DNA of 32,000 bases from Staphylothermus marinus F1 (lineage in GTDB: Archaea > Thermoproteota > Thermoprotei_A > Sulfolobales > Desulfurococcaceae), in assembly GCF_000015945.1 (NCBI RefSeq), contig NC_009033.1:420001-452000 (forward strand). The letters run 5' to 3'. A program made the translations under genes and the position numbers. This document shows, piece after piece, positions 7,465 through 25,297 of the stretch (positions are counted from its first letter, which is position 1; each line of letters begins with the position of its first letter). The notes below the pieces were generated by a model. The model was given only the letters and a program-made list of their open reading frames with translations. It had not been told where the DNA came from and did no database searches.

Positions 7465-7592
7465 AGCCGCCGGCGGGATTTGAACCCGCGACCACCGGCT
7501 CTCCCGGCCTATGTATTGTACGGGCCTGAATTAGTTCCTTGGTCTCTTCGGGCTTACAAGGCCGGCGCTCTACCGGGCTGAGCTACGGCGGC
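7465..7592 (-). tRNA. tRNA-Thr (anticodon UGU) with a 54-nt intron
   Basis: Reverse strand reads GCCGCCG-TA-GCTC-AGCCCGGTA-GAGC-G-CCGGC-CTTGTA-[intron 7501..7554]-A-GCCGG-TGGTC-GCGGG-TTCAAAT-CCCGC-CGGCGGC-T. It has a perfect 7-bp acceptor stem and a canonical T arm. The intron is at the canonical 37/38 position. No CCA is encoded. Confidence 0.9.
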
Positions 7593-11285: not shown

Positions 11286-12248
11286 ATGGGATTCCCAGGT
11301 GGTTCGCTTACAATGTATAATGATTGGACTGAACAATTAGAGTATAGAATAGGTAAATATATAATAGGCGGTAAGCCAGGTAAAAACCCTGCATGGCTTA
11401 TTGGATCAATATTTTATCTAGGAGACAAGCTTTTACTCAGTGAGAAAGGAGATTTTGATAAGGAAAAAGCTAAAGCGAAAATCGAGGAAGCTATAAATAT
11501 TGCTGAAAACTACTCATTAGTTTTCGGATTAGACGTTGTATTTCCCAGTATTGAAAGCATTGATAAAATATTACCATTTATATCAGAATATGATATCCCT
11601 ATATTTCTTGACAGCCCAGACCCAATTATTAGAGCTAAAAGCTATCTAGTAGCTAAAGAGCTTGGAATAAATGATAAAATCATAGCTAACGGAATCTTCA
11701 TAGATAGCCCTGAGGAAGAAATAAATGCATTAAGAGATGGTGGGATAAAAACATCAGTAATAATGGCTTTTGATCCTAGAAACCCGTTGAAATCAATTAA
11801 TCCATTAGAGAGGCTAAGACTCCTAGAAACCGTCCTTTTGCCTCTCGCTGAAAAAGCCGGTGTTGAACAAGTTCTTGTCGACGCTATAGTAATCGATCCT
11901 GCAAGTATAGCGTTTAGTGCTGAAACAATATTTGAGACCAAGAAGAGATTTGGTTATCCAAGTGGTTGTGCACCAGCCAATGCTCTCGGACCTGTATCTA
12001 AGTCTAAAACTAGTATTGGAGAAATGTATGGCGTACATGGAGGCGTCGCTGTCTATTTAAGAATTCATGGAGCAGACTATATCATGTATGGTCCCATATC
12101 TAGGATCAAATACGTTGCTCCAGCAGTAGCTATGGCTGATTCATTGCTTGGATATAGTCTTAGAAGAAAAGGAGAAAAAATCTCTAGTAATCATCCAATA
12201 AAGAAGATGCTTAGAAAAGTACAGAAACTATTTGCTACCTCTAAGTGA
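11286..12248 (+). CDS. MtrH-family methyltransferase (methyl-pterin:corrinoid methyltransferase-like)
   Basis: Blocks IGGKPGKNPAWLIGSIFY, IFLDSPDP, YGPISRIKYVAPAVAMADSL and NHPIKKML align with the hallmark blocks of tetrahydromethanopterin S-methyltransferase subunit H as I recall them. The start may be the second ATG (MYNDW, 11313). Confidence 0.8.
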   Translation: MGFPGGSLTMYNDWTEQLEYRIGKYIIGGKPGKNPAWLIGSIFYLGDKLLLSEKGDFDKEKAKAKIEEAINIAENYSLVFGLDVVFPSIESIDKILPFISEYDIPIFLDSPDPIIRAKSYLVAKELGINDKIIANGIFIDSPEEEINALRDGGIKTSVIMAFDPRNPLKSINPLERLRLLETVLLPLAEKAGVEQVLVDAIVIDPASIAFSAETIFETKKRFGYPSGCAPANALGPVSKSKTSIGEMYGVHGGVAVYLRIHGADYIMYGPISRIKYVAPAVAMADSLLGYSLRRKGEKISSNHPIKKMLRKVQKLFATSK

Positions 12249-13865
12249 AACTATGTTTAAACTATTAATCCACGTCCTCATATAGTCTTCTTCTTCAGCC
12301 AAGTTTATATGAATAATCTTCTCCAGAATAGATCTATACATCTTAAACATGTTAGAATCAAGCACCATAACTTTCAAACCAGATAAAACCATGTTTCCAG
12401 CATAAGCTAACCTATCATCCTCTACTACAGGTACAAGACCTAAATCGATAAGATCACTGGATTCAATATTTGAGCCGAAGCTCCCAGCAATAATTACATG
12501 TTCTAAATCTTCACATTTAATCCCAGCTTTTCTACATAGTATTATCCAAGCTGTTTTAACTGCTGCATAAGCTTTCTGAAACTCCCTTAGATCCTTCTGT
12601 GTAAAGAATACATGATTTTCCTTGTCGATAATATATGTTTTAATATTATTGATGCGTTTATAGCCTTTAAGAAACCTGCCTTTCTCATCAATGTATTTAT
12701 GGCGGAGGAGTTCAGCAACTAAACTAATAATTCCTGTTCCAAGCAATCCATATGGTTTATTAATGTATTTATAATTGAAAACTGGTTCGCCATTTTTGGA
12801 ATCAACGATCTCAACTTTATATATTCCGCCGTAAACAATCGATGATCCTCTGGCTAAGTGTCCCTCGAAAGCTGGTCCAGCAGGTGTGCTCGTAGCATAT
12901 ATTTTATCACTGGTTACAAGTAATACTTCAGTATTTGTTCCCAAATCTATAATCATGTATGGCTTCTTCAATGCTAACTTGAGAGACGCTATTAGTTCAG
13001 AATAAGCATCTCCTCCAACATAACCCGCTATTAGGGGGGCTAGTATTGTTGGCTTATTATATGTATATGTTAGGAAGGGGCCGTGAAATAGTGGTTGAAA
13101 TGGCTTTTCAGCCAATGTTTCTATTGGGAGACCTAAATATAGATGCTCCATAACACTGTTCCCAGCAATAAATATTGATCCAGTATTGAATTCTTCAGCA
13201 ATACTGTTAGCTTCTTTTCTAAGCATTAAACTCATTTCTTGGAGACTTTCAGGTTTTTCTAGAACATTAGTTATTCTTGTAATTATATCTGCACCGTAAA
13301 TGTTGAGTGGATTAATACTTATTTTCTCATCAATTACCTCTCCATTAATTGTTATTGCTTGATATGCTATCTTAGTTGTTCCTAGATCAATCAATAATAT
13401 TTTTTCAGGGTCCCCTGTCGTGGAAAGGACGGTATCTTCTAAAAATATATAATTAGATGGTCTCGGCTCATTTATTACTACATAGTTTTTGTTTCTATAT
13501 GGTAGCTTTTCTAAACGAGCAATTTTGATTATAGGATTTATTTGTTTAAGCGGGATATTTATCGAGTATTTTGGAACACTAATTATTCTCGGCTTCTCGG
13601 CTTCAACAACGAGGTCCCCCATTACTAGTACTTGGCAAGCTAGTCTCTCATCTCCCCTTAATCCATGAACAACTTCGTTTCCAGTTATAGGATTCGTTTC
13701 TCCATATACTTTTACTCTACATAATCCGCATAATCCTCTGCCGCCGCATGGTAATGGTATGATGCTTTTTGATGCTAGTATTAATCCTAAATTATCTCCT
13801 TTACACGCGGGTATTTCTCCGTAGCCAACAACTTTTATAGTTACTTTTTCACAGTTTTTATGCAT
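12228..13865 (-). CDS. Reductive activase of corrinoid enzymes (RACE/RamA-RACo type: N-terminal 2Fe-2S ferredoxin plus ASKHA ATPase, DUF4445)
   Basis: N-terminal PCGGRGLCGLCRV...LACQV is a plant-type 2Fe-2S motif. It is followed by ASKHA phosphate motifs LLIDLGTTKIAY and MIIDLGTNTEV. It overlaps the upstream corrinoid-protein gene by 8 nt. Confidence 0.8.
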   Translation of the reverse strand: MHKNCEKVTIKVVGYGEIPACKGDNLGLILASKSIIPLPCGGRGLCGLCRVKVYGETNPITGNEVVHGLRGDERLACQVLVMGDLVVEAEKPRIISVPKYSINIPLKQINPIIKIARLEKLPYRNKNYVVINEPRPSNYIFLEDTVLSTTGDPEKILLIDLGTTKIAYQAITINGEVIDEKISINPLNIYGADIITRITNVLEKPESLQEMSLMLRKEANSIAEEFNTGSIFIAGNSVMEHLYLGLPIETLAEKPFQPLFHGPFLTYTYNKPTILAPLIAGYVGGDAYSELIASLKLALKKPYMIIDLGTNTEVLLVTSDKIYATSTPAGPAFEGHLARGSSIVYGGIYKVEIVDSKNGEPVFNYKYINKPYGLLGTGIISLVAELLRHKYIDEKGRFLKGYKRINNIKTYIIDKENHVFFTQKDLREFQKAYAAVKTAWIILCRKAGIKCEDLEHVIIAGSFGSNIESSDLIDLGLVPVVEDDRLAYAGNMVLSGLKVMVLDSNMFKMYRSILEKIIHINLAEEEDYMRTWINSLNIVSLRGSK

Positions 13866-14529
13866 CTATATACTCCTCAGCAATCTTATTCACAAGCTTC
13901 ACAGCCTCGATAGCGTTGGGAGCCCAGCCATCCGCACCAATTTTTTCCGCGAATTCCCTAGTAGTAGCTGCTCCTCCTACTAAAACTTTTACTTTCTCCC
14001 TTAAACCATTCTTTTCTAACTCCTCAATTATTACTCTCATATATCTCGCAGTTGTAGATAGTAACGCACTTAAACCAATTATTTGAGGCTTATATTTTAT
14101 GATTGCATCAATTATTTTTTCAGCATCAACATCAACACCTAGATCAATCACTTCATGCCCAGCTGCTTGCAACATAACTCCCACAAGTGTTTTACCTATA
14201 TCATGTATATCTCCCTTAACAGTTGCCAATACTATTCTTAGCCTCTTCCTACCCTGAGCCATAGATTTAGCTTCTAATCTCAACCTTGGCTCCAATATCT
14301 TCATTGCCTCCTTAAATATGTCTGCTGCCTCCATAAGCTCCGCTATAAAATATTCTCCCTCCTCATATAATCTGCCGATCTCCTCCATAGCTTTACTCAT
14401 AGGTCCAAGCACAATATCTAAAGCTTTAACCCCCATATCCAACAGTTTTATAACATTATCCAATACACAGTCCTTATCCAAATCTACAAGACAATTGTAG
14501 AGCTTATCAAATAACTCCTCAACACTCAC
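13858..14529 (-). CDS. Corrinoid (cobalamin-binding) methyl-carrier protein
   Basis: 223 aa. It has an N-terminal helical cap domain and a Rossmann-type B12 domain with the DxHxxG motif (GDIHDIGK), SALLSTT and VLVGGAA. Confidence 0.85.
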   Translation of the reverse strand: MSVEELFDKLYNCLVDLDKDCVLDNVIKLLDMGVKALDIVLGPMSKAMEEIGRLYEEGEYFIAELMEAADIFKEAMKILEPRLRLEAKSMAQGRKRLRIVLATVKGDIHDIGKTLVGVMLQAAGHEVIDLGVDVDAEKIIDAIIKYKPQIIGLSALLSTTARYMRVIIEELEKNGLREKVKVLVGGAATTREFAEKIGADGWAPNAIEAVKLVNKIAEEYIDA

Positions 14530-14619
14530 ATCATCGCACCTAACCTATAACCATAGTATTTTATACTATAAGCATTTATTCTAAGAAAAACACATACTAT
14601 TTAAAAACTCAGTAAGTGA

Positions 14620-15612
14620 TTGAAAATGTATGGGAAGATTAGGACAAGCCATGTTGGAAGCTTTCCTCTTCCTCACAGCTTAGATAATCTTAGGATGATC
14701 ATAGATGATTTATGGAGAATTAAACTAGATGCACCACCATATCCTCAGCTGAGAAGCTTTATAGACATATATCTCAAACCCTTAGCAGATAAGGGGTTAT
14801 TAAAGGAAAAGAACGGGTTTTATTTCTTAGAATCTAAGGAGTCATTTAAGGATATAGAATATTTAGAGCCAAGCATTAATGAAGCAGAATATATGATAAA
14901 GTATCTTGAAGAGAAAAAATATGGTTTTAAATGGCTCAGAGCACCTGTAACAGGAGCTTTTACCTTAGCATCTAGAATATACTTATCCAAAGACATAAGT
15001 GTGGGGCTACATGGAACGCTTCTCCGAAAAAAATCCCTGATAGAATACATTGTAGAATATGTTAGAAAACATATCACATATATGAGCAGGTTAGGCTATA
15101 ACATATTATTTATTGATGAACCAGTCCTCGGAGTCATTGTTGGTAAGAGAAGAATACTGTTCGGCTTCTCCCAAGAAGAAATCATAGAAATAATAAATCA
15201 TATATTCTCAAAAGCACCAGGTGAACACGGCATACATGTATGCGGGAGAATATCGCCTAAACTATTCGAAACATTAGCAATCACGGATAAACTAGACATT
15301 CTAAACTTCGAATTCCACGATAACCCCATGAACATCGAATCAATAAATCCAAGCCTGTTAGAGGAGAATAATAAAGTTCTAGCTCCGGGAATTGCTAGTG
15401 CTAAGAAACCAGTTATTGAACCATATGATGAACTAAGTGATTTACTCAGGAAGATAGGTGAAAAAACCATGTGGAGAATAGACTTAGTCTCAGCAGATTG
15501 CGGCTTCGGCGGATTGGCTACAGACTCAGGCGATCCATATAAAGCATACCGTATAGGATTAGAGAAGCTACATAGGATAATTGAAGTAGTAAGGCTTCTC
15601 CAAAAGAAATAG
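14620..15612 (+). CDS. Core MetE-type (Meth_synt_2-like) zinc methyltransferase lacking the N-terminal folate-binding half
   Basis: 330 aa. Contains TSHVGSFPLP, LFIDEPVL, IHVCGR (His-x-Cys), NFEF and SADCGFGGL. These correspond to the substrate and Zn-ligand blocks of the cobalamin-independent methionine synthase catalytic domain. The likely true start is ATG 14626, about 25 nt downstream of CTATTTAAAA. Confidence 0.75.
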   Translation: MKMYGKIRTSHVGSFPLPHSLDNLRMIIDDLWRIKLDAPPYPQLRSFIDIYLKPLADKGLLKEKNGFYFLESKESFKDIEYLEPSINEAEYMIKYLEEKKYGFKWLRAPVTGAFTLASRIYLSKDISVGLHGTLLRKKSLIEYIVEYVRKHITYMSRLGYNILFIDEPVLGVIVGKRRILFGFSQEEIIEIINHIFSKAPGEHGIHVCGRISPKLFETLAITDKLDILNFEFHDNPMNIESINPSLLEENNKVLAPGIASAKKPVIEPYDELSDLLRKIGEKTMWRIDLVSADCGFGGLATDSGDPYKAYRIGLEKLHRIIEVVRLLQKK

Positions 15613-18508: not shown

Positions 18509-18659
18509 AACTCTCTGTTCAGTGCCGAGAATATTATATGTTGAAAAACTAGATATGCCTTACATATATACCTATTTCTTAAACGATATATAGTTATCTA
18601 TAAACCATCTAGTATAGATTGCCTCAAATATTATTGATAATAATTCACCAATAATTGGA

Positions 18660-18706
18660 GTTCAACCCACATAGGTCTTAATAGACCCACGTAGGCCTTG
18701 GAGCAC
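18660..18706 (-). repeat. Degenerate copy of the hairpin-containing K-turn module (see 19485..19542 and 20596..20649)
   Basis: GTTCAACCCACATAGGTCTTAATAGACCCACGTAGGCCTTGGAGCAC aligns with 19488..19534. The box equivalents are degraded: TTGA instead of CTGA, and TTGTGCT instead of GTGATGT, on the reverse strand. Confidence 0.5.
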
Positions 18707-18779
18707 AAGGTAATGCTTAGTTAAAATATCGCAATCTCTTAAATCATATCCTAGAACACTTAATGAGGGGAATACGTTT

Positions 18780-19502
18780 ATGGTTAGCTATAGGAGAATT
18801 ATATATGCTATAATAGAATCTGTTGGTTTAGGTTTTAATGTTAAACCTGTTCAGGAGGCTATTAGGAGGGTTATTTCTAAGTATAGAATAAGTGATCCTC
18901 AAGTTGATCGTAAGGTTTCCGGCATAGTTTACAGTATTTACCGTTATCAGGGGCTTTTAGATAAGATCGTTACCGACATAACCGGTTTTAATCCTTCAGA
19001 TCTCCCATATTATGTTCATGCAGCCTTACTTGTAGCTGCTTATGTTTCACAATTAGACGAGAAGATGAGTAGCTCGATGAAGAGAACTTTTAAGAGATAT
19101 ATTCTGAGATATTTGGGCAAGAAAATAGGTGATAAAGCAGTTAGAGAGAAAATTATTGATAAAGCTAAGCTGTTATTTAATAATAAATGGTCTCCAAATA
19201 GTGAAGAAGACAAGGTTCTTCTAAAATATAGGGTTTCCCCAGAACTATACCGTGCACTAGCTAAGGCTCTCAAAGAACTCGGTGAAAATCTGGATGATTT
19301 CTTAAATGCAACAATGAAGATCAAGTATAGGGTTTTCAGGGTTAATTCTTTGAAGGCTAAACCGGAAGCTGTATATAGATTTCTCGAAGACTCAGAGTAT
19401 AAGGTTGAACTGGGTAAGTACAGTAGGAGAGCTATTAGAGTTTATGGGAGTATTAGGAGGGAGATTATAAGGTTTATTGAGACAGGGGTTCAGCCCACAT
19501 AG
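18780..19502 (+). CDS. NOL1/NOP2/Sun (RsmB-like) RNA m5C methyltransferase, N-terminal domain only; first fragment of a broken gene
   Basis: It has a NusB-like N-terminus and YRVFRVNSLKAKPEAVYRFLEDSEYKVE...RAIRVYGS...RFIETG, which is typical pre-catalytic Sun-family sequence. After codon 236 (19487) the ORF runs into the GC-rich repeat and stops. Confidence 0.7.
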   Translation: MVSYRRIIYAIIESVGLGFNVKPVQEAIRRVISKYRISDPQVDRKVSGIVYSIYRYQGLLDKIVTDITGFNPSDLPYYVHAALLVAAYVSQLDEKMSSSMKRTFKRYILRYLGKKIGDKAVREKIIDKAKLLFNNKWSPNSEEDKVLLKYRVSPELYRALAKALKELGENLDDFLNATMKIKYRVFRVNSLKAKPEAVYRFLEDSEYKVELGKYSRRAIRVYGSIRREIIRFIETGVQPT

Positions 19503-19662
19503 GTTTTGATAGACCTATGTGGGCTTTGGGACACATCACCCCTGCGGATGATTCGCAGGAGCTCGTCCCCTTTCGGGGTAACCCCGGAGCCCCACATCCG
19601 AAGGTACGCCCCCATAGGCTACCATTGTAGCCTGACAGAGGGGGCTTTTACCACCTCCACAA
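19485..19662 (-). ncRNA. K-turn (C/D-box-like) sRNA paralogue 'R2', antisense, inserted in the Sun gene
   Basis: Reverse strand 3' module is GGGG-TGATGT-GTCCCAAAGC-[11-bp hairpin CCCACATAGGT/ACCTATGTGGG]-CTGA-A-CCCC (19485..19542). This is homologous to the C'/D half of 24636..24719. Upstream are GC-rich hairpins, including CCCC-GAAA-GGGG. TTTAAATA on the reverse strand (19683-19690) lies about 25 nt upstream of the proposed 5' end. Confidence 0.45.
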
Positions 19663-19755
19663 TTGTATGTATATGGTAAAGTATTTAAACCTTTTGGATC
19701 GAAGGTTGATTAATGCTTACGAACGCCCACCAAATCCGTTACTGTTGCGGAGGGC

Positions 19756-19860
19756 ATACTTGTTCCACAGGATGAATCAAGTATTGTGGCCGTAGAAATT
19801 CTTGATCCAAAGCCTGAGACCAAGATTGCGGATCTATGTGCTGCTCCAGGTGGTAAGACT
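19756..19860 (+). pseudogene. Sun-family methyltransferase fragment 2 (SAM-binding motif I)
   Basis: ILVPQDESSIVAVEILDPKPETKIADLCAAPGGKT matches the Q(D/E)xSS...DxCAAPGGKT block of NOL1/NOP2/Sun enzymes. It is in a different frame from fragment 1. Confidence 0.7.
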
Positions 19861-20093
19861 ATTTGCTTATTTGGATACTATGATTGTTTAGAGGGGCTAG
19901 TTGTTTGGTTCGCTTTATAAACCCTTTATAATATAGTGGTTTGTGAAATGCGGATGAAGGGCTCAAAAGTGGTCTATGTGGAGCCCCGATAGCCCCCTCA
20001 ATGAAGGGATGAAGCCCCAACCCAAGAGGGGGAAGCCCGTGCAAGCATCCAAAGTTTCCAAAACAACCAAAAGATAAAGCACGGGCAACCACT
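19855..20093 (+). mobile_element. GC-rich repeat element 'E2', copy B
   Basis: Homologous to 1426..1685. It has the same ends (AAGACTATT...CCACT), TTTATAAA at 19904-19911 and a near-identical GC-rich core at 19943..20093. No flanking direct repeat is present here. Confidence 0.6.
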
Positions 20094-20094
20094 A

Positions 20095-20292
20095 CTATAT
20101 ACAGTATGCAGTGTATTGCCTTGGGAGGGAGAATATATTATCAGGGATTTCCTGGAAAAACATAGGGATGCAGAGCTTATACCATTAAATAAGCCATTCA
20201 AACAATCACCTATCCTGCCAGGTACAATGCGTGCATGGCCCCATATACATGGCACCATAGGCTTCTACTATGCATTACTAAAGAAAAAATAA
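20095..20292 (+). pseudogene. Sun-family methyltransferase fragment 3 (C-terminal end, motif VI onward)
   Basis: LYTVCSVLPWEGEYIIRDFLEKHRDAELIPL...RAWPHIHGTIGFYYALLKKK matches the (V)YSTCS..EENE..V..FL ... GFF.A.L.K terminus of the family. The roughly 125-145 residues between motif I and this block, including the DAPCSG motif IV, are absent. Confidence 0.65.
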
Positions 20293-20496
20293 TGATGCTC
20301 ATAAATTATCTGATCAACTTTTAAAGGAGGGTCAGAAGAGGCCGAGCCTTCCCCATTCCCAGCCATGGGATACGGGACAGGCCCATCGAAACTGTTAAAT
20401 ATTACATAGGCATTTATAGATGTTGGGCCTGCTCGGGATGCGGGTGTGTGGGTGGAGACCTAAGGGGGTAGGTCTTCAAATAATATTTCGTCTCAA

Positions 20497-20661
20497 GATG
20501 AAGGGTTTTCCCCACAGCCGTGAGCTGTGGGCAGGGGTTACCCGGATCGGGGACAAGGCCGATGATATGCTCCCCGATGAAAGGGGGGCTGAGGTTGATG
20601 AATCCCAAAGCCTACATAGGCCTATCAAGACCTACGTAGGCTGAACCCCGGCTTCTTCATC
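20497..20661 (+). ncRNA. K-turn (C/D-box-like) sRNA paralogue 'R3'
   Basis: 5' GATGAAG (20497-20503) is exactly complementary to 3' CTTCATC (20655-20661). Internally it reads GATGATA...CCCC-GATGAAA-GGGG...CTGA-GGT-TGATGA-ATCCCAAAGCC-[hairpin CCTACATAGG/CCTACGTAGG]-CTGA-ACCCC. It shares GGGGTTACCC.GA..GGGGAC with R2. The 5' end could lie further upstream (about 20443), downstream of TTTATAGA at 20413-20420. Confidence 0.5.
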
Positions 20662-20856
20662 CCATAGAATCAATAAATTATACTAACCATATATTAATTC
20701 CCCCGAATGTTTTTACTTGTCGATAATAATATTTTTAAATTACTCGGGATAAATGAGAATATGTCTTTATTCACGGGAAAATACTAGTAAAACAATAAAA
20801 TAAGAAGTTAAAATAAAATTACAAATAGCAACATAATAGTTATTAGGGTTATTGAT

Positions 20857-23374: not shown

Positions 23375-24514
23375 TCACCGTGATGCTTGTTTTGTTTTAG
23401 TTTCTTTACTGGTTTTCTTCAAATATTTCATTCGTACATTATATTTATATACAGCCAATGGATTCTTTCCACCTCTACATTGACCGTTTATAGGGCAAAG
23501 ATTTAATGTTTTCATAGATTCACAACTATATGGTAAATATTTTTTCCTAGAACCTCTGAGACCGGCTATGTGTTCCAATTGATACCGAGCTATTTTCTCA
23601 TTAAAATCTGGCGCGTTTTTAAAGAATTCCAGCATTGAGTCGATATCCATACCTATTCTTGCCAGGAACGCAGCAATAGTGAATCTTTCGTGATGCCCTA
23701 GGTTCTCCCCTGATCTAAGCCTATTGAGGAGTATTTTCATGCATGGTGGAAATGCTTCAAAATCTATTACTCCCTCAGTGTTTTTCTCTATTTCAATGTC
23801 TAGCATTCTCTTCTGCATCCATTCAATTTCGTCTAAAATTTTTCTGGCTTCCTCTATTAGTTCCCGGAACTTATTTTCTTCAACCTTTATATTCTCTATA
23901 ATATCCAATATTTTATGGTGTATAGCTTCTTCTAGTATTCTAGAAAAAATTTTCTTGTTTAAGAATACTTTTCCTCTATGCACAACTTGGTTAACTAAAG
24001 AATATTTTGGATCCCGTGCCAGCCTTTTAGCTGTGAGTTTTAAGTAATCTTTTAAATCAATACCGATCGGTCTGGGTTCAAATATTGGTTTATTTCTTTT
24101 TAAATCGATAGGAATTAATGGATAGTTTCTTGATAATTCAGCTTTGATTCCAAGTATATTGGATATTTTCAATAATGTATTGACTGGTTCATTTTGTAAA
24201 TATCTATATGCGTGCTTCGCATATGTAACCGCGACTATGCTTGAAAGTTTCTTATCTTTTAAAAGCTTAACTATTGAGATTAATGTATAGAATGCTAATA
24301 CTTCGTCTTCACTAGTAGATTTCGGAGGCGGTATTTTTCTTTTTGAAACTATTGATTTAAGCAAAACCATAGCGCGGAGTCTTGGATAATTATTAGGCAT
24401 AGATATGATATCAGATAGTTTTAGTCCTGGCCATCTATAGTTTAAGGTATCTTTTAGGTCTGCTAGGAATGGGTAGTTTCTATAATCTATTATTGTTACA
24501 GCCAAAACATACAC
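23375..24514 (-). CDS. priL: DNA primase large (regulatory) subunit PriL
   Basis: FPPCMKILLNRLRSGENLGHHERFTIAAFLARIGM...ARYQLEHIAGLRGSRKKYLPYSCESMKTLNLCPINGQC shows the conserved helical domain and the Fe-S cluster cysteines of archaeal/eukaryotic PriL. GTG start in the track. Confidence 0.85.
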   Translation of the reverse strand: MYVLAVTIIDYRNYPFLADLKDTLNYRWPGLKLSDIISMPNNYPRLRAMVLLKSIVSKRKIPPPKSTSEDEVLAFYTLISIVKLLKDKKLSSIVAVTYAKHAYRYLQNEPVNTLLKISNILGIKAELSRNYPLIPIDLKRNKPIFEPRPIGIDLKDYLKLTAKRLARDPKYSLVNQVVHRGKVFLNKKIFSRILEEAIHHKILDIIENIKVEENKFRELIEEARKILDEIEWMQKRMLDIEIEKNTEGVIDFEAFPPCMKILLNRLRSGENLGHHERFTIAAFLARIGMDIDSMLEFFKNAPDFNEKIARYQLEHIAGLRGSRKKYLPYSCESMKTLNLCPINGQCRGGKNPLAVYKYNVRMKYLKKTSKETKTKQASR

Positions 24515-24522
24515 CCATGTTA

Positions 24523-24582
24523 TCAGTGGGGACGGGTTTCGTTCATCAACATATATTCACGCGATGGCGTATTCATCATCCC
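24523..24582 (-). ncRNA. Candidate C/D box sRNA immediately upstream of priL
   Basis: Reverse strand reads GGG-ATGATGA-ATACGCCATCGC(12 nt)-GTGA-ATATATGT-TGATGA-ACGAAACCCGTCCCCA(16 nt)-CTGA. TTTTATATA on the same strand lies about 20 nt upstream. The second spacer is longer than the usual 12 nt and there is no terminal stem. Confidence 0.45.
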
Positions 24583-24635
24583 TATACTTTATATCGTATA
24601 TAAAAGGAGATATTCAGTTTTTATGTTTTTAAAAG

Positions 24636-24719
24636 AGGCGGGTTCAGCGCTTTGGCCCCACATCACGCTTGTTCAGGCGACCTCCCAAGATGGGAGGTCC
24701 CCATTCATCATTTACCCGC
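24636..24719 (-). ncRNA. C/D box sRNA-like gene with terminal stem; founding-type copy of the K-turn repeat family
   Basis: Reverse strand reads GGCGGG-TAA-ATGATGA-[28 nt containing the 9-bp hairpin GACCTCCCA/TGGGAGGTC]-CTGA-ACAAGC-GTGATGT-GGGGCCAAAGCG(12 nt)-CTGA-A-CCCGCC. It has canonical C, D', C' and D boxes and a 6-bp terminal stem. It lies in the spacer between two same-strand genes. Confidence 0.6.
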
Positions 24720-24760
24720 CGAGATAGAATTATTTGGTTTATGCTCTGATAAATATTCTT

Positions 24761-25297
24761 TTAAACAGTTTGTTTTACCTCGAAATATATTGCTTCTCTA
24801 CCACCCACTCTAGTTCCAGGCTTTACTCTAAAAAATAATACTCTACCATTAGGCTCTACACGGTATGGAACACCTAGTTCTGCCTTAACTATTCTAGCGT
24901 TCTCAGGCATAAACCAATACACTATATATTCATACTCAGCCTCTTCTTCCTCATAGATGTTTTCATAAATGTTTAAGCCTTCTTTTAGTTCTCCTTTGAA
25001 CTCTATGAGGAAAACAATATATGCGATCTCAGGTTTTCCCCTAACACCGATTTCTACATCTACGACTTTGGGCGGAGCTTCTACACCATTTATAAGAACT
25101 TTCTCTTGGTCAAGATAATACTGCATATTGTTTGCTAGAAACATTCTTTCCTCCTCGAGCTTCATAGGCTTTGATAATAACTTCCAATAATAACGATCTG
25201 GATCCCAATAATCAAATACTATTACTTGATCCACCAATCCTGTTTCATGCATGTAGAAGTATCCATGTGCATATAGTGGTGTTATATTATCGCTCAT
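24761..25297 (-). CDS. Hypothetical soluble protein, translationally coupled to the upstream membrane-tethered regulator
   Basis: 178 aa, no TM segment, acidic patch YEEEEAEYEY. Its ATG overlaps the upstream stop codon (ATGA at 25294-25297). I recognise no family. Confidence 0.6.
   Translation of the reverse strand: MSDNITPLYAHGYFYMHETGLVDQVIVFDYWDPDRYYWKLLSKPMKLEEERMFLANNMQYYLDQEKVLINGVEAPPKVVDVEIGVRGKPEIAYIVFLIEFKGELKEGLNIYENIYEEEEAEYEYIVYWFMPENARIVKAELGVPYRVEPNGRVLFFRVKPGTRVGGREAIYFEVKQTV

Follow-up and report, generated by a model that had tools for sequence, protein, structure and literature searches.

A predicted Desulfurococcales box C/D small RNA with a self-folded spacer, and hairpin-bearing insertions nearby, in Staphylothermus marinus F1

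Archaeal box C/D small RNAs (sRNAs) have guides of 10–12 nt (PMC7994747), efficient methylation is said to need conserved spacing (Tran et al. 2005, as cited in PMC7994747), and the sRNAs directed at tRNA typically use one guide, the other being an orphan (Breuer et al. 2021, PMC7994747). Among them, sR27 has U34 of tRNA-Gln as its assigned target (Lui et al. 2018, PMC6009581); the D guide of PCAsR27 is GGAUCCAAAGCG before CUGA, and that of Sac-sR14 is AGGGCCAAAGCU before CAGA (both from the supplement of Dennis et al. 2015, PMC4644070). For tRNA-Gln(UUG) of S. acidocaldarius, sRNA-guided methylation of U34 was predicted and Um34 was observed (Wolff et al. 2020, PMC7668247). Here, we analyzed a 32,000-nt stretch of the Staphylothermus marinus F1 genome (contig NC_009033.1, positions 420,001 to 452,000 of the forward strand; hereafter the window, to which all positions refer), in which a gene designated sRNA-1 lies between those for PriL and for a 178-aa protein, ORF178 (open reading frame 178). 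We consider it likely that sRNA-1 is an independently transcribed box C/D sRNA and the Desulfurococcales member of the sR27/sR14 family, and that the hairpin-bearing repeats found elsewhere in the window are separate insertions.

Compared with Pyrobaculum sR27 and S. acidocaldarius sR14, sRNA-1 has the same box architecture and the same predicted N+5 nucleotide, while the non-D guide differs between lineages. In contrast to the C-D′ spacers of approximately 12–13 nt in sR27 and sR14, that of sRNA-1 is 28 nt long (20–30 nt across its clade) and holds a conserved 9-mer and a fold-back hairpin; moreover, the gene is fixed in the ORF178–PriL intergenic position. The sRNA family is a known one, and the new part, as predicted from the sequence, is the lineage-specific, conserved, self-folded long spacer. 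Another archaeal, tRNA-related C/D sRNA with an extra stable GC hairpin is that of the Nanoarchaeum equitans tRNA-Met intron (Randau 2012, PMC3491384), which, unlike sRNA-1, is intron-encoded; the comparison covers the presence of the hairpin.

Anatomy and conservation of sRNA-1

The features of sRNA-1 are given below as read from the minus strand, the hairpin also from the predicted fold and box C′ also from syntenic loci; variants are the 49 distinct C-to-D cores obtained by pooling metagenome and syntenic loci.

24637–24720, minus strand: sRNA-1, predicted box C/D sRNA of approximately 84 nt, putative member of the sR27/sR14 tRNA-Gln U34 guide family
24714–24720 and 24637–24643, minus strand: terminal stem GGCGGGU/ACCCGCC, 6–7 bp
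24705–24711, minus strand: box C, AUGAUGA (RUGAUGA, RUGAUGU or UUGAUGC in the 49 variants)
24677–24704, minus strand: C-D′ spacer of 28 nt, AUGGG GACCUCCCA UCU UGGGAGGUC GC
24679–24699, minus strand: 9-bp hairpin GACCUCCCA / UCU / UGGGAGGUC within the C-D′ spacer
24694–24702, minus strand: conserved 9-mer GGGGACCUC, spacer positions 3–11, covering most of the hairpin 5′ arm
24673–24676, minus strand: box D′, CUGA (in 49/49 variants)
24660–24666, minus strand: box C′, GUGAUGU
24648–24659, minus strand: D guide GGGGCCAAAGCG, 12 nt, with its N+5 nucleotide opposite the middle U of CGCUUUGGCCCC
24644–24647, minus strand: box D, CUGA, followed by the 3′ strand of the stem
24631–24636, minus strand: T-tract downstream of sRNA-1

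The whole order is GGCGGGU-AA-AUGAUGA-(28-nt spacer)-CUGA-ACAAGC-GUGAUGU-GGGGCCAAAGCG-CUGA-ACCCGCC-UCUUUU, with a predicted folding energy of −38.5 kcal/mol (z = −3.5). As required of archaeal C/D sRNAs, terminal boxes C and D are present and conserved across the 49 variants, and D′ and C′ (RUGAUGU) are linked by 3–6 nt in nearly all of them, the linker being variable in sequence and 10 nt long in two variants. The C′-D spacer complies with the guide length of approximately 10–12 nt, and the C-D′ spacer does not. The terminal stem, the four boxes, the 12-nt guide, the 28-nt spacer and the 9-bp hairpin that an earlier note had described from the sequence alone are all present, although its coordinates (24636–24719) were off by one base. 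At the Rfam gathering cut-off, no family was found for sRNA-1 or for a neighbouring sRNA, sRNA-2, and the only match in the window was a tRNA; at E ≤ 10, the matches were weak (GlsR13, E = 9.5; sR35, E = 6). With this anatomy, sRNA-1 is a genuine predicted box C/D sRNA in which one guide is canonical and the other spacer is over-long and folded on itself.

The order ORF178–sRNA-1–PriL was found in eight syntenic loci (L002–L006, L128, L130 and L132), along which PriL identity falls from 99% to 48%. Across these loci, the boxes, the two arms of the hairpin and the D guide show no or almost no differences, and the hairpin loop, the D′-C′ linker and the terminal stem vary, the latter in a covarying manner (GGCGGG/CCCGCC, GGTAGGG/CCCTACC and GCGGGAA/UUCCCGC; GGCG/CGCC is a further form within the family). 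A scan of JGI metagenomes for the exact C′-guide-D string, UGAUGUGGGGCCAAAGCGCUGA, returned 57 loci, in 45 of which the sRNA lies between homologues of ORF178 and PriL, with PriL identity down to approximately 30%. The remaining 12 loci have no ORF178 or PriL match, and their spacers are mostly of 12 nt or otherwise without GGGGACCUC. In 46 of the 49 variants, an A/T run lies upstream, at a distance suited to a promoter. The D guide is identical in all six loci recovered via PriL synteny, that is, not via the guide string.

With regard to the flanking genes, the best named relatives of PriL (23375–24514, minus strand) are those of Staphylothermus and of metagenome-assembled genomes (MAGs) of Desulfurococcaceae; among Logan contigs, the exact PriL protein is confined to one from run SRR4046664, three other runs yielded contigs with a PriL that is 99% identical, and a PriL back-translation scan of GTDB genomes gave no confirmed relative. 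ORF178 (24761–25297, minus strand; 178 aa, no Pfam domain) is the almost invariable upstream neighbour of the sRNA and PriL, and its homologues at the 45 metagenome loci are down to approximately 45% identical.

As judged from these comparisons, sRNA-1 is an old, single-copy, syntenic and vertically inherited gene. This contrasts with two suggestions of the earlier note. Degeneration of the sRNA does not agree with a D guide that is identical in every copy recovered and resembles the known guides of sR27 and sR14, and a role as founder of dispersed repeats does not agree with a single-copy gene that keeps its ORF178–PriL position in most metagenome loci.

Guide target and self-folded spacer

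The D guide GGGGCCAAAGCG matches the guides of PCAsR27 and Sac-sR14 at 10 of 12 nt each, and a 10-nt core, GGGCCAAAGC, is identical between sRNA-1 and Sac-sR14. Given the anticodon-loop sequence C32-U33-U34-U35-G36-G37, the N+5 nucleotide of the sRNA-1 guide is U34, and the guide probably targets this wobble nucleotide of tRNA-Gln(UUG). All genes retrieved by a scan with GCTTTGGCCC plus a T-loop were for tRNA-Gln(ttg) and came from tRNA arrays of phages, which speaks to plausibility only. Among the 99 tRNAs that ARAGORN identified in the collected loci, none was tRNA-Gln, and a regular expression for the UUG anticodon arm found none there either. A full-text literature search for the guide string returned unrelated primer sequences only.

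Complementarity of the 12-nt guide to rRNA, a check proposed in the earlier note, was not observed. The search covered 120 Thermoprotei rRNA loci, 28 of them with essentially complete operons, including those of the Desulfurococcaceae L012, L030 and L075 (the last from the same MAG as sRNA locus L132) and of Ignisphaera L033. At 95,870 bp, the contig of L033 is as long as the metagenome contig that holds sRNA locus L147, and the two are probably identical. Allowing ≤ 1 mismatch or ≤ 2 G·U pairs, no 16S or 23S complement of GGGGCCAAAGCG was present in these 120 loci, and no target for it was found in the entire 1.47 Mb of collected loci. The peptidyl-transferase region of 23S rRNA was considered as a candidate target and discarded, as the Thermoprotei sequence there reads ...CGGTTTGCTACATCGATGTCGG. 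At the same thresholds, the hairpin 3′ arm beside D′ and both guides of sRNA-2 gave no conserved rRNA site, with 8–9-mers only.

From what is known of the family, the C/D kink-turn (K-turn) and the D′/C′ K-loop would be the assembly sites of L7Ae, Nop5 and fibrillarin, and the 12-nt D guide would pair with the anticodon arm of tRNA-Gln(UUG), with a core, GCUUUGGCCC, corresponding to G31–C40. This pairing would place U34 at N+5 for 2′-O-methylation, and the C-D′ half would not act as a canonical guide. That tRNA-directed sRNAs typically leave one guide orphan fits a C-D′ half that can change freely.

The C-D′ spacer falls into three length classes among the distinct variants:

12 nt: 4 variants, with a D′ guide that is mostly GCAUGCUAAAUA; none in ORF178–PriL context
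20–22 nt: 13 variants
23–30 nt: 32 variants

In the longest class, 30 of the 32 spacers fold at ≤ −8 kcal/mol (range −8 to −18 kcal/mol). Most long-spacer forms retain GGGGNCCUC 2 nt after box C; in its general form, GGGGNCCUY, the element occurs at this fixed 2-nt offset in 39 of the 45 long-spacer variants, and it is also kept in 20-nt spacers with no real hairpin. The hairpin 3′ arm, on the other hand, is lineage-specific (GGGAGGU, GAGGUCUUC, GAGGGC, AAUAGGGGUC or AGGCC). Compensatory changes affect two places: spacer position 7, with an A:U pair in 19 variants, a G:C pair in 3 and a C:G pair in one, and spacer positions 12–15, with CCCA/UGGG or UAUU/AAUA. Judging by these patterns, the spacer hairpin is real and selected. 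The description of a hairpin in place of a guide, as put forward in the earlier note, needs to be revised: the 5′ arm lies in guide register, and, because it is the most conserved part of the spacer and is kept where the hairpin is absent, the hairpin would sequester the conserved 9-mer rather than replace a guide.

The 49 variants, with their compensatory changes, indicate that the C-D′ spacer has expanded in this lineage from approximately 12 to 20–30 nt, that it retains an ancestral 9-nt element, GGGGACCUC, in normal guide register beside box C, and that lineage-specific downstream sequence pairs back onto the 9-mer. The hairpin could compact the over-long spacer and hold the two K-turn modules at a workable distance, and it may further mask the 9-mer or stand in for its substrate. 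In a stronger version, which we hold to be possible but doubtful, the hairpin would be an intramolecular pseudo-substrate, the ancestral second guide GGGGACCUC having gained a cis-encoded target mimic, such as GAGGUCUUC in some lineages. If true, the unused half of the ribonucleoprotein (RNP) would be permanently locked in a substrate-loaded shape, and the sRNA would have a built-in bypass of the 12-nt spacing rule, making it a dedicated single-site methylase.

The 9-mer also invites a rather unlikely alternative, in which sRNA-1 has a dual function: GGGGACCUC would be a live antisense to the 23S sequence GAGGUCCCC, serving as folding chaperone or accessory pairing, with the hairpin as a switch opened by contact with pre-rRNA. 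The 9-mer is complementary to GAGGUCCCC and conserved with or without the hairpin, its exact complement occurs in 13 of the 28 complete operons, among them those of the Desulfurococcaceae L012, L030 and L075, and only 2.4% of the 9-mer permutations do as well (P = 0.024). The 23S site, which by alignment to the E. coli sequence we place at approximately E. coli 1948–1956, presumably adjoins the equivalent of yeast Am2256, and in eukaryotes this region carries many modifications. However, the statistics are weak, the complement is missing from other operons (e.g., L029 and L033), and the D guide has no nearby rRNA partner, unlike those of typical double guides. In addition, the 9-mer adjoins box C, 17 nt from D′, and, being too far from D′, has no capacity for canonical N+5 methylation.

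Several points count against the interpretation of sRNA-1 as a single-guide member of the sR27/sR14 family. As the metagenome scan demanded the exact D guide, conservation of the guide there is partly built in, and only the six PriL-syntenic loci are independent in this respect. The U34 target comes from guide homology only, because the tRNA-Gln(UUG) of this clade is not among the sequences obtained. The 28-nt spacer conflicts with the conserved-spacing rule, and the RNP geometry with the hairpin is a conjecture. The complementarity of the 9-mer to 23S rRNA, for its part, is marginal and suggestive at best, and the pairing is not positioned for N+5. To these is added the resemblance of sRNA-1 to hairpin modules elsewhere in the window, considered in the next section.

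Hairpin modules and insertions

Three hairpin modules had been linked to the sRNA in the earlier note. Two of them are the ends of larger insertions, and the third stands alone:

19487–19752, minus strand: insertion A, 266 bp, with a module (module A, 19485–19542) at its 3′ end; it interrupts an RsmB/F-type gene
20384–20647, plus strand: insertion B, 264 bp, with a module (module B, 20593–20649) at its 3′ end, in the orientation opposite to that of A
18657–18707, minus strand: solo decayed module, in the intergenic region between a glycosyltransferase gene and rsmB/F

The modules are related to each other: 18657–18707 is 80% identical to 19485–19535, the arms 19463–19541 and 20593–20671 are 77% complementary, the last 55 nt of insertions A and B are 85% identical, blastn among the modules gave E = 1e-11 to 3e-6, and the hairpin pattern was matched three times with none expected. 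The apparent 79-bp inverted repeat arises because insertions A and B lie in opposite orientation.

Both larger elements show presence/absence polymorphism at otherwise identical sites, as expected of insertions. Insertion A is missing from L002/L003 (a 99%-identical strain), L005 and L006, and insertion B from L002/L003, in which the solo module is present at 98%; the empty sites read ...GTATGCC|TGTCTC... and ...ACAGGCC|GGCTTC.... The insertion ends are asymmetric (CTCCGCAACAG... versus ...GGGCTGAACC), and neither terminal inverted repeats nor a target-site duplication were found in them, apart from an ambiguous CC on both flanks. Both carry a TATA-like box and encode a GC-rich, strongly folding predicted RNA (z = −5.8 for A and −3.7 for B). 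In the A/B consensus fold of the shared 3′ domain, the UCCC within UCCCAAAGCC is paired to a GGGA upstream of it, and one hairpin pair is compensated. A bulge-helix-bulge (BHB) intron was considered for insertion A and rejected, as its RNA would run antisense to the host gene, from which, moreover, 333 nt are missing.

Two full copies and a solo end are present in the window. No further copy of module or element was found in the ~12-kb flanking contigs, in the Logan flanks L001 and L192, in JGI metagenomes, or among plasmids and phages, and IMG/VR gave one chance match and none after that. Two Logan contigs assembled from short reads, L001 and L192, are cut off within the repeats of this region. 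No autonomous partner for the insertions was found, and the window contains no transposase.

As a separate observation, GGGACAAGGCCG in the interior of insertion B (~20550–20562) nearly equals its own empty target site, GGGACAGGCCG (rough P ~0.01), and insertion A has only a faint equivalent; other guide-like matches of element interiors to their own ends or targets were 6–7-mers only. The match of GGGACAAGGCCG to GGGACAGGCCG could be chance or a hint of homology- or RNA-guided target choice, and with two copies it is not interpretable.

The ends of IS200/IS605, IS607 and IS110 elements encode structured RNAs (omega RNA or bridge RNA). The insertions resemble non-autonomous derivatives of these elements in their asymmetric ends, a subterminal hairpin approximately 10 nt from one end and the absence of coding capacity, as well as in the CC on both flanks, the promoter-like box and the structured RNA running to the element end. 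They differ in that no transposase, TnpB or recombinase partner was found, the hairpin is at one end only, there is no Rfam match, and there are two full copies.

The earlier note went further and placed sRNA-1 and the three modules in one K-turn RNA family, whose guides had been replaced by hairpins and which was decaying into, or had been co-opted as, structural or mobile RNP modules. We regard this as quite improbable, although it has evidence on its side. Collinear exact blocks of 8, 7 and 9 nt (score 24) between the sRNA C′/D half and module A exceeded those of all 300 full shuffles, and with the box motifs held fixed the match kept P = 0.0055; modules A and B retain UGAUG...CUGA around the hairpin. 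There is also a precedent in Pyrobaculum calidifontis, where C/D-sRNA-like miniature inverted-repeat transposable elements (MITEs), small non-coding repeats in unstable, non-syntenic regions, possibly give rise to abundant transcripts (Lui et al. 2018, PMC6009581). However, with sRNA-1 as the query, blastn returned no module at E ≤ 1; P weakens to 0.036 for module B and to 0.08 for the solo copy; and the ACCC after box D, part of the match, sits in the terminal stem, which is variable within the sRNA family. Moreover, the sRNA is single-copy, syntenic and ancient, with a constrained guide. The resemblance between sRNA and modules is marginal, that is, not plainly chance, yet too weak for homology. 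Of the proposed dispersed family, the mutual relationship of the three modules thus holds, whereas homology to the C′/D half of the sRNA does not.

The K-turn part of the proposal did not hold up either. In module A, GGGGU/ACCCC directly adjoins GA/AG and leaves no 3-nt bulge; in the A/B consensus fold, UCCC pairs with the upstream GGGA, and the hairpin stem takes up the CU of the D-like CUGA. A K-turn is thus not evident in the modules. The P. calidifontis elements and insertions A and B are alike in being small non-coding repeats with C/D-like boxes. They differ in that the former are sRNA-sized, with conserved inverted repeats flanking canonical C/D boxes, whereas the insertions are ~265 bp long, asymmetric and devoid of terminal inverted repeats, and their box-like motifs flank a 12-bp hairpin at one end only, with no convincing K-turn. 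From these comparisons, the repeats appear to be MITE-like insertions, unrelated or at most distantly related to sRNA-1. As a less likely layer, of low probability, the insertions could be RNA-carrying mobile elements with a 3′ module captured from such a C′/D half, a scenario kept alive by the P. calidifontis precedent.

Neighbouring features and implications

A second sRNA gene and two further repetitive or disrupted features lie in the window:

24520–24583, minus strand: sRNA-2, predicted canonical box C/D sRNA with its own TATA-like box, directly upstream of priL; weak sR35 match (E = 6)
18780–20292, plus strand: RsmB/F (Nop2/Sun-type) methyltransferase pseudogene; the ORF in the window stops at 240 aa
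1426–1685 and 19855–20093: third repeat, ~260 bp, copies 82–92% identical

Seven loci share the conserved guides of sRNA-2, AUACGCCAUCG(C/U/G)G and (A/U)A(C/U)CCGUCCCCA, for which no 16S or 23S complement was found. Most of the D guide of sRNA-2, CCCGUCCCCA, has its reverse complement in GUAUGGGGACGGG, the D′ guide region of Pyrobaculum calidifontis sR105 (PCAsR105; supplement of PMC4644070).

It is very unlikely indeed that sRNA-1 is a cis-regulatory K-turn element of the priL transcript, under L7Ae-mediated control in the 5′ untranslated region, instead of a trans-acting guide: it does lie directly upstream of PriL in 45 of the 57 loci, and a passage in PMC5539422 describes Sulfolobus L7Ae binding to K-turns in mRNA leaders, but the C′-guide-D unit also occurs at the 12 loci with no ORF178 or PriL match, sRNA-1 has its own upstream A/T box and downstream T-tract, sRNA-2 with its TATA-like box sits between it and priL, and the guide matches the sR27/sR14 family.

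An intact 450-aa RsmB/F gene with PF01189 is present in L002, L003, L005 and L006, which represent the 99%-identical strain and two related species. In the window, this gene is split by insertion A, and 333 nt are swapped for a 231-nt copy of the third repeat. The latter has terminal inverted repeats of ~26 nt (1446–1471 and 1642–1667), a GC-rich core in which GAUGAAG motifs occur and a TTTATAAA box, and by its sequence it resembles a classical MITE; it is also where Logan contig L192 ends.

The window has a GC content of ~35%, with GC-rich RNA islands. It includes a tRNA-Thr (anticodon UGU) whose intron is 56 nt long (7465–7592, minus strand; Rfam, 60.8 bits), which was missed by default ARAGORN. 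At 11286–15612, genes for an MtrH-like methyltransferase, a RACo-type corrinoid activator and a B12-binding protein are clustered with a weak MetE-like ORF. Together they would form a corrinoid-dependent module for methyl transfer, which is not usual in Desulfurococcales-like genomes; L006 likewise has the B12-binding and RACo genes.

As far as the insertions are concerned, this locus catches two uncharacterised RNA-encoding elements in the course of destroying an rRNA/tRNA 5-methylcytosine (m5C)-methyltransferase-type gene, which is useful for the annotation of MAGs of this group. With regard to sRNA-1, our reading would extend the sR27/sR14 tRNA-Gln U34 guide to Desulfurococcales. A distance of ~12 nt between the two K-turn modules is regarded as necessary in archaeal C/D RNPs; with a clade-wide, self-paired spacer of 20–30 nt beside a strictly conserved, presumably functional guide, this family would be a natural test case, bearing both on the strictness of the spacing rule and on how single-guide, tRNA-directed enzymes are built.

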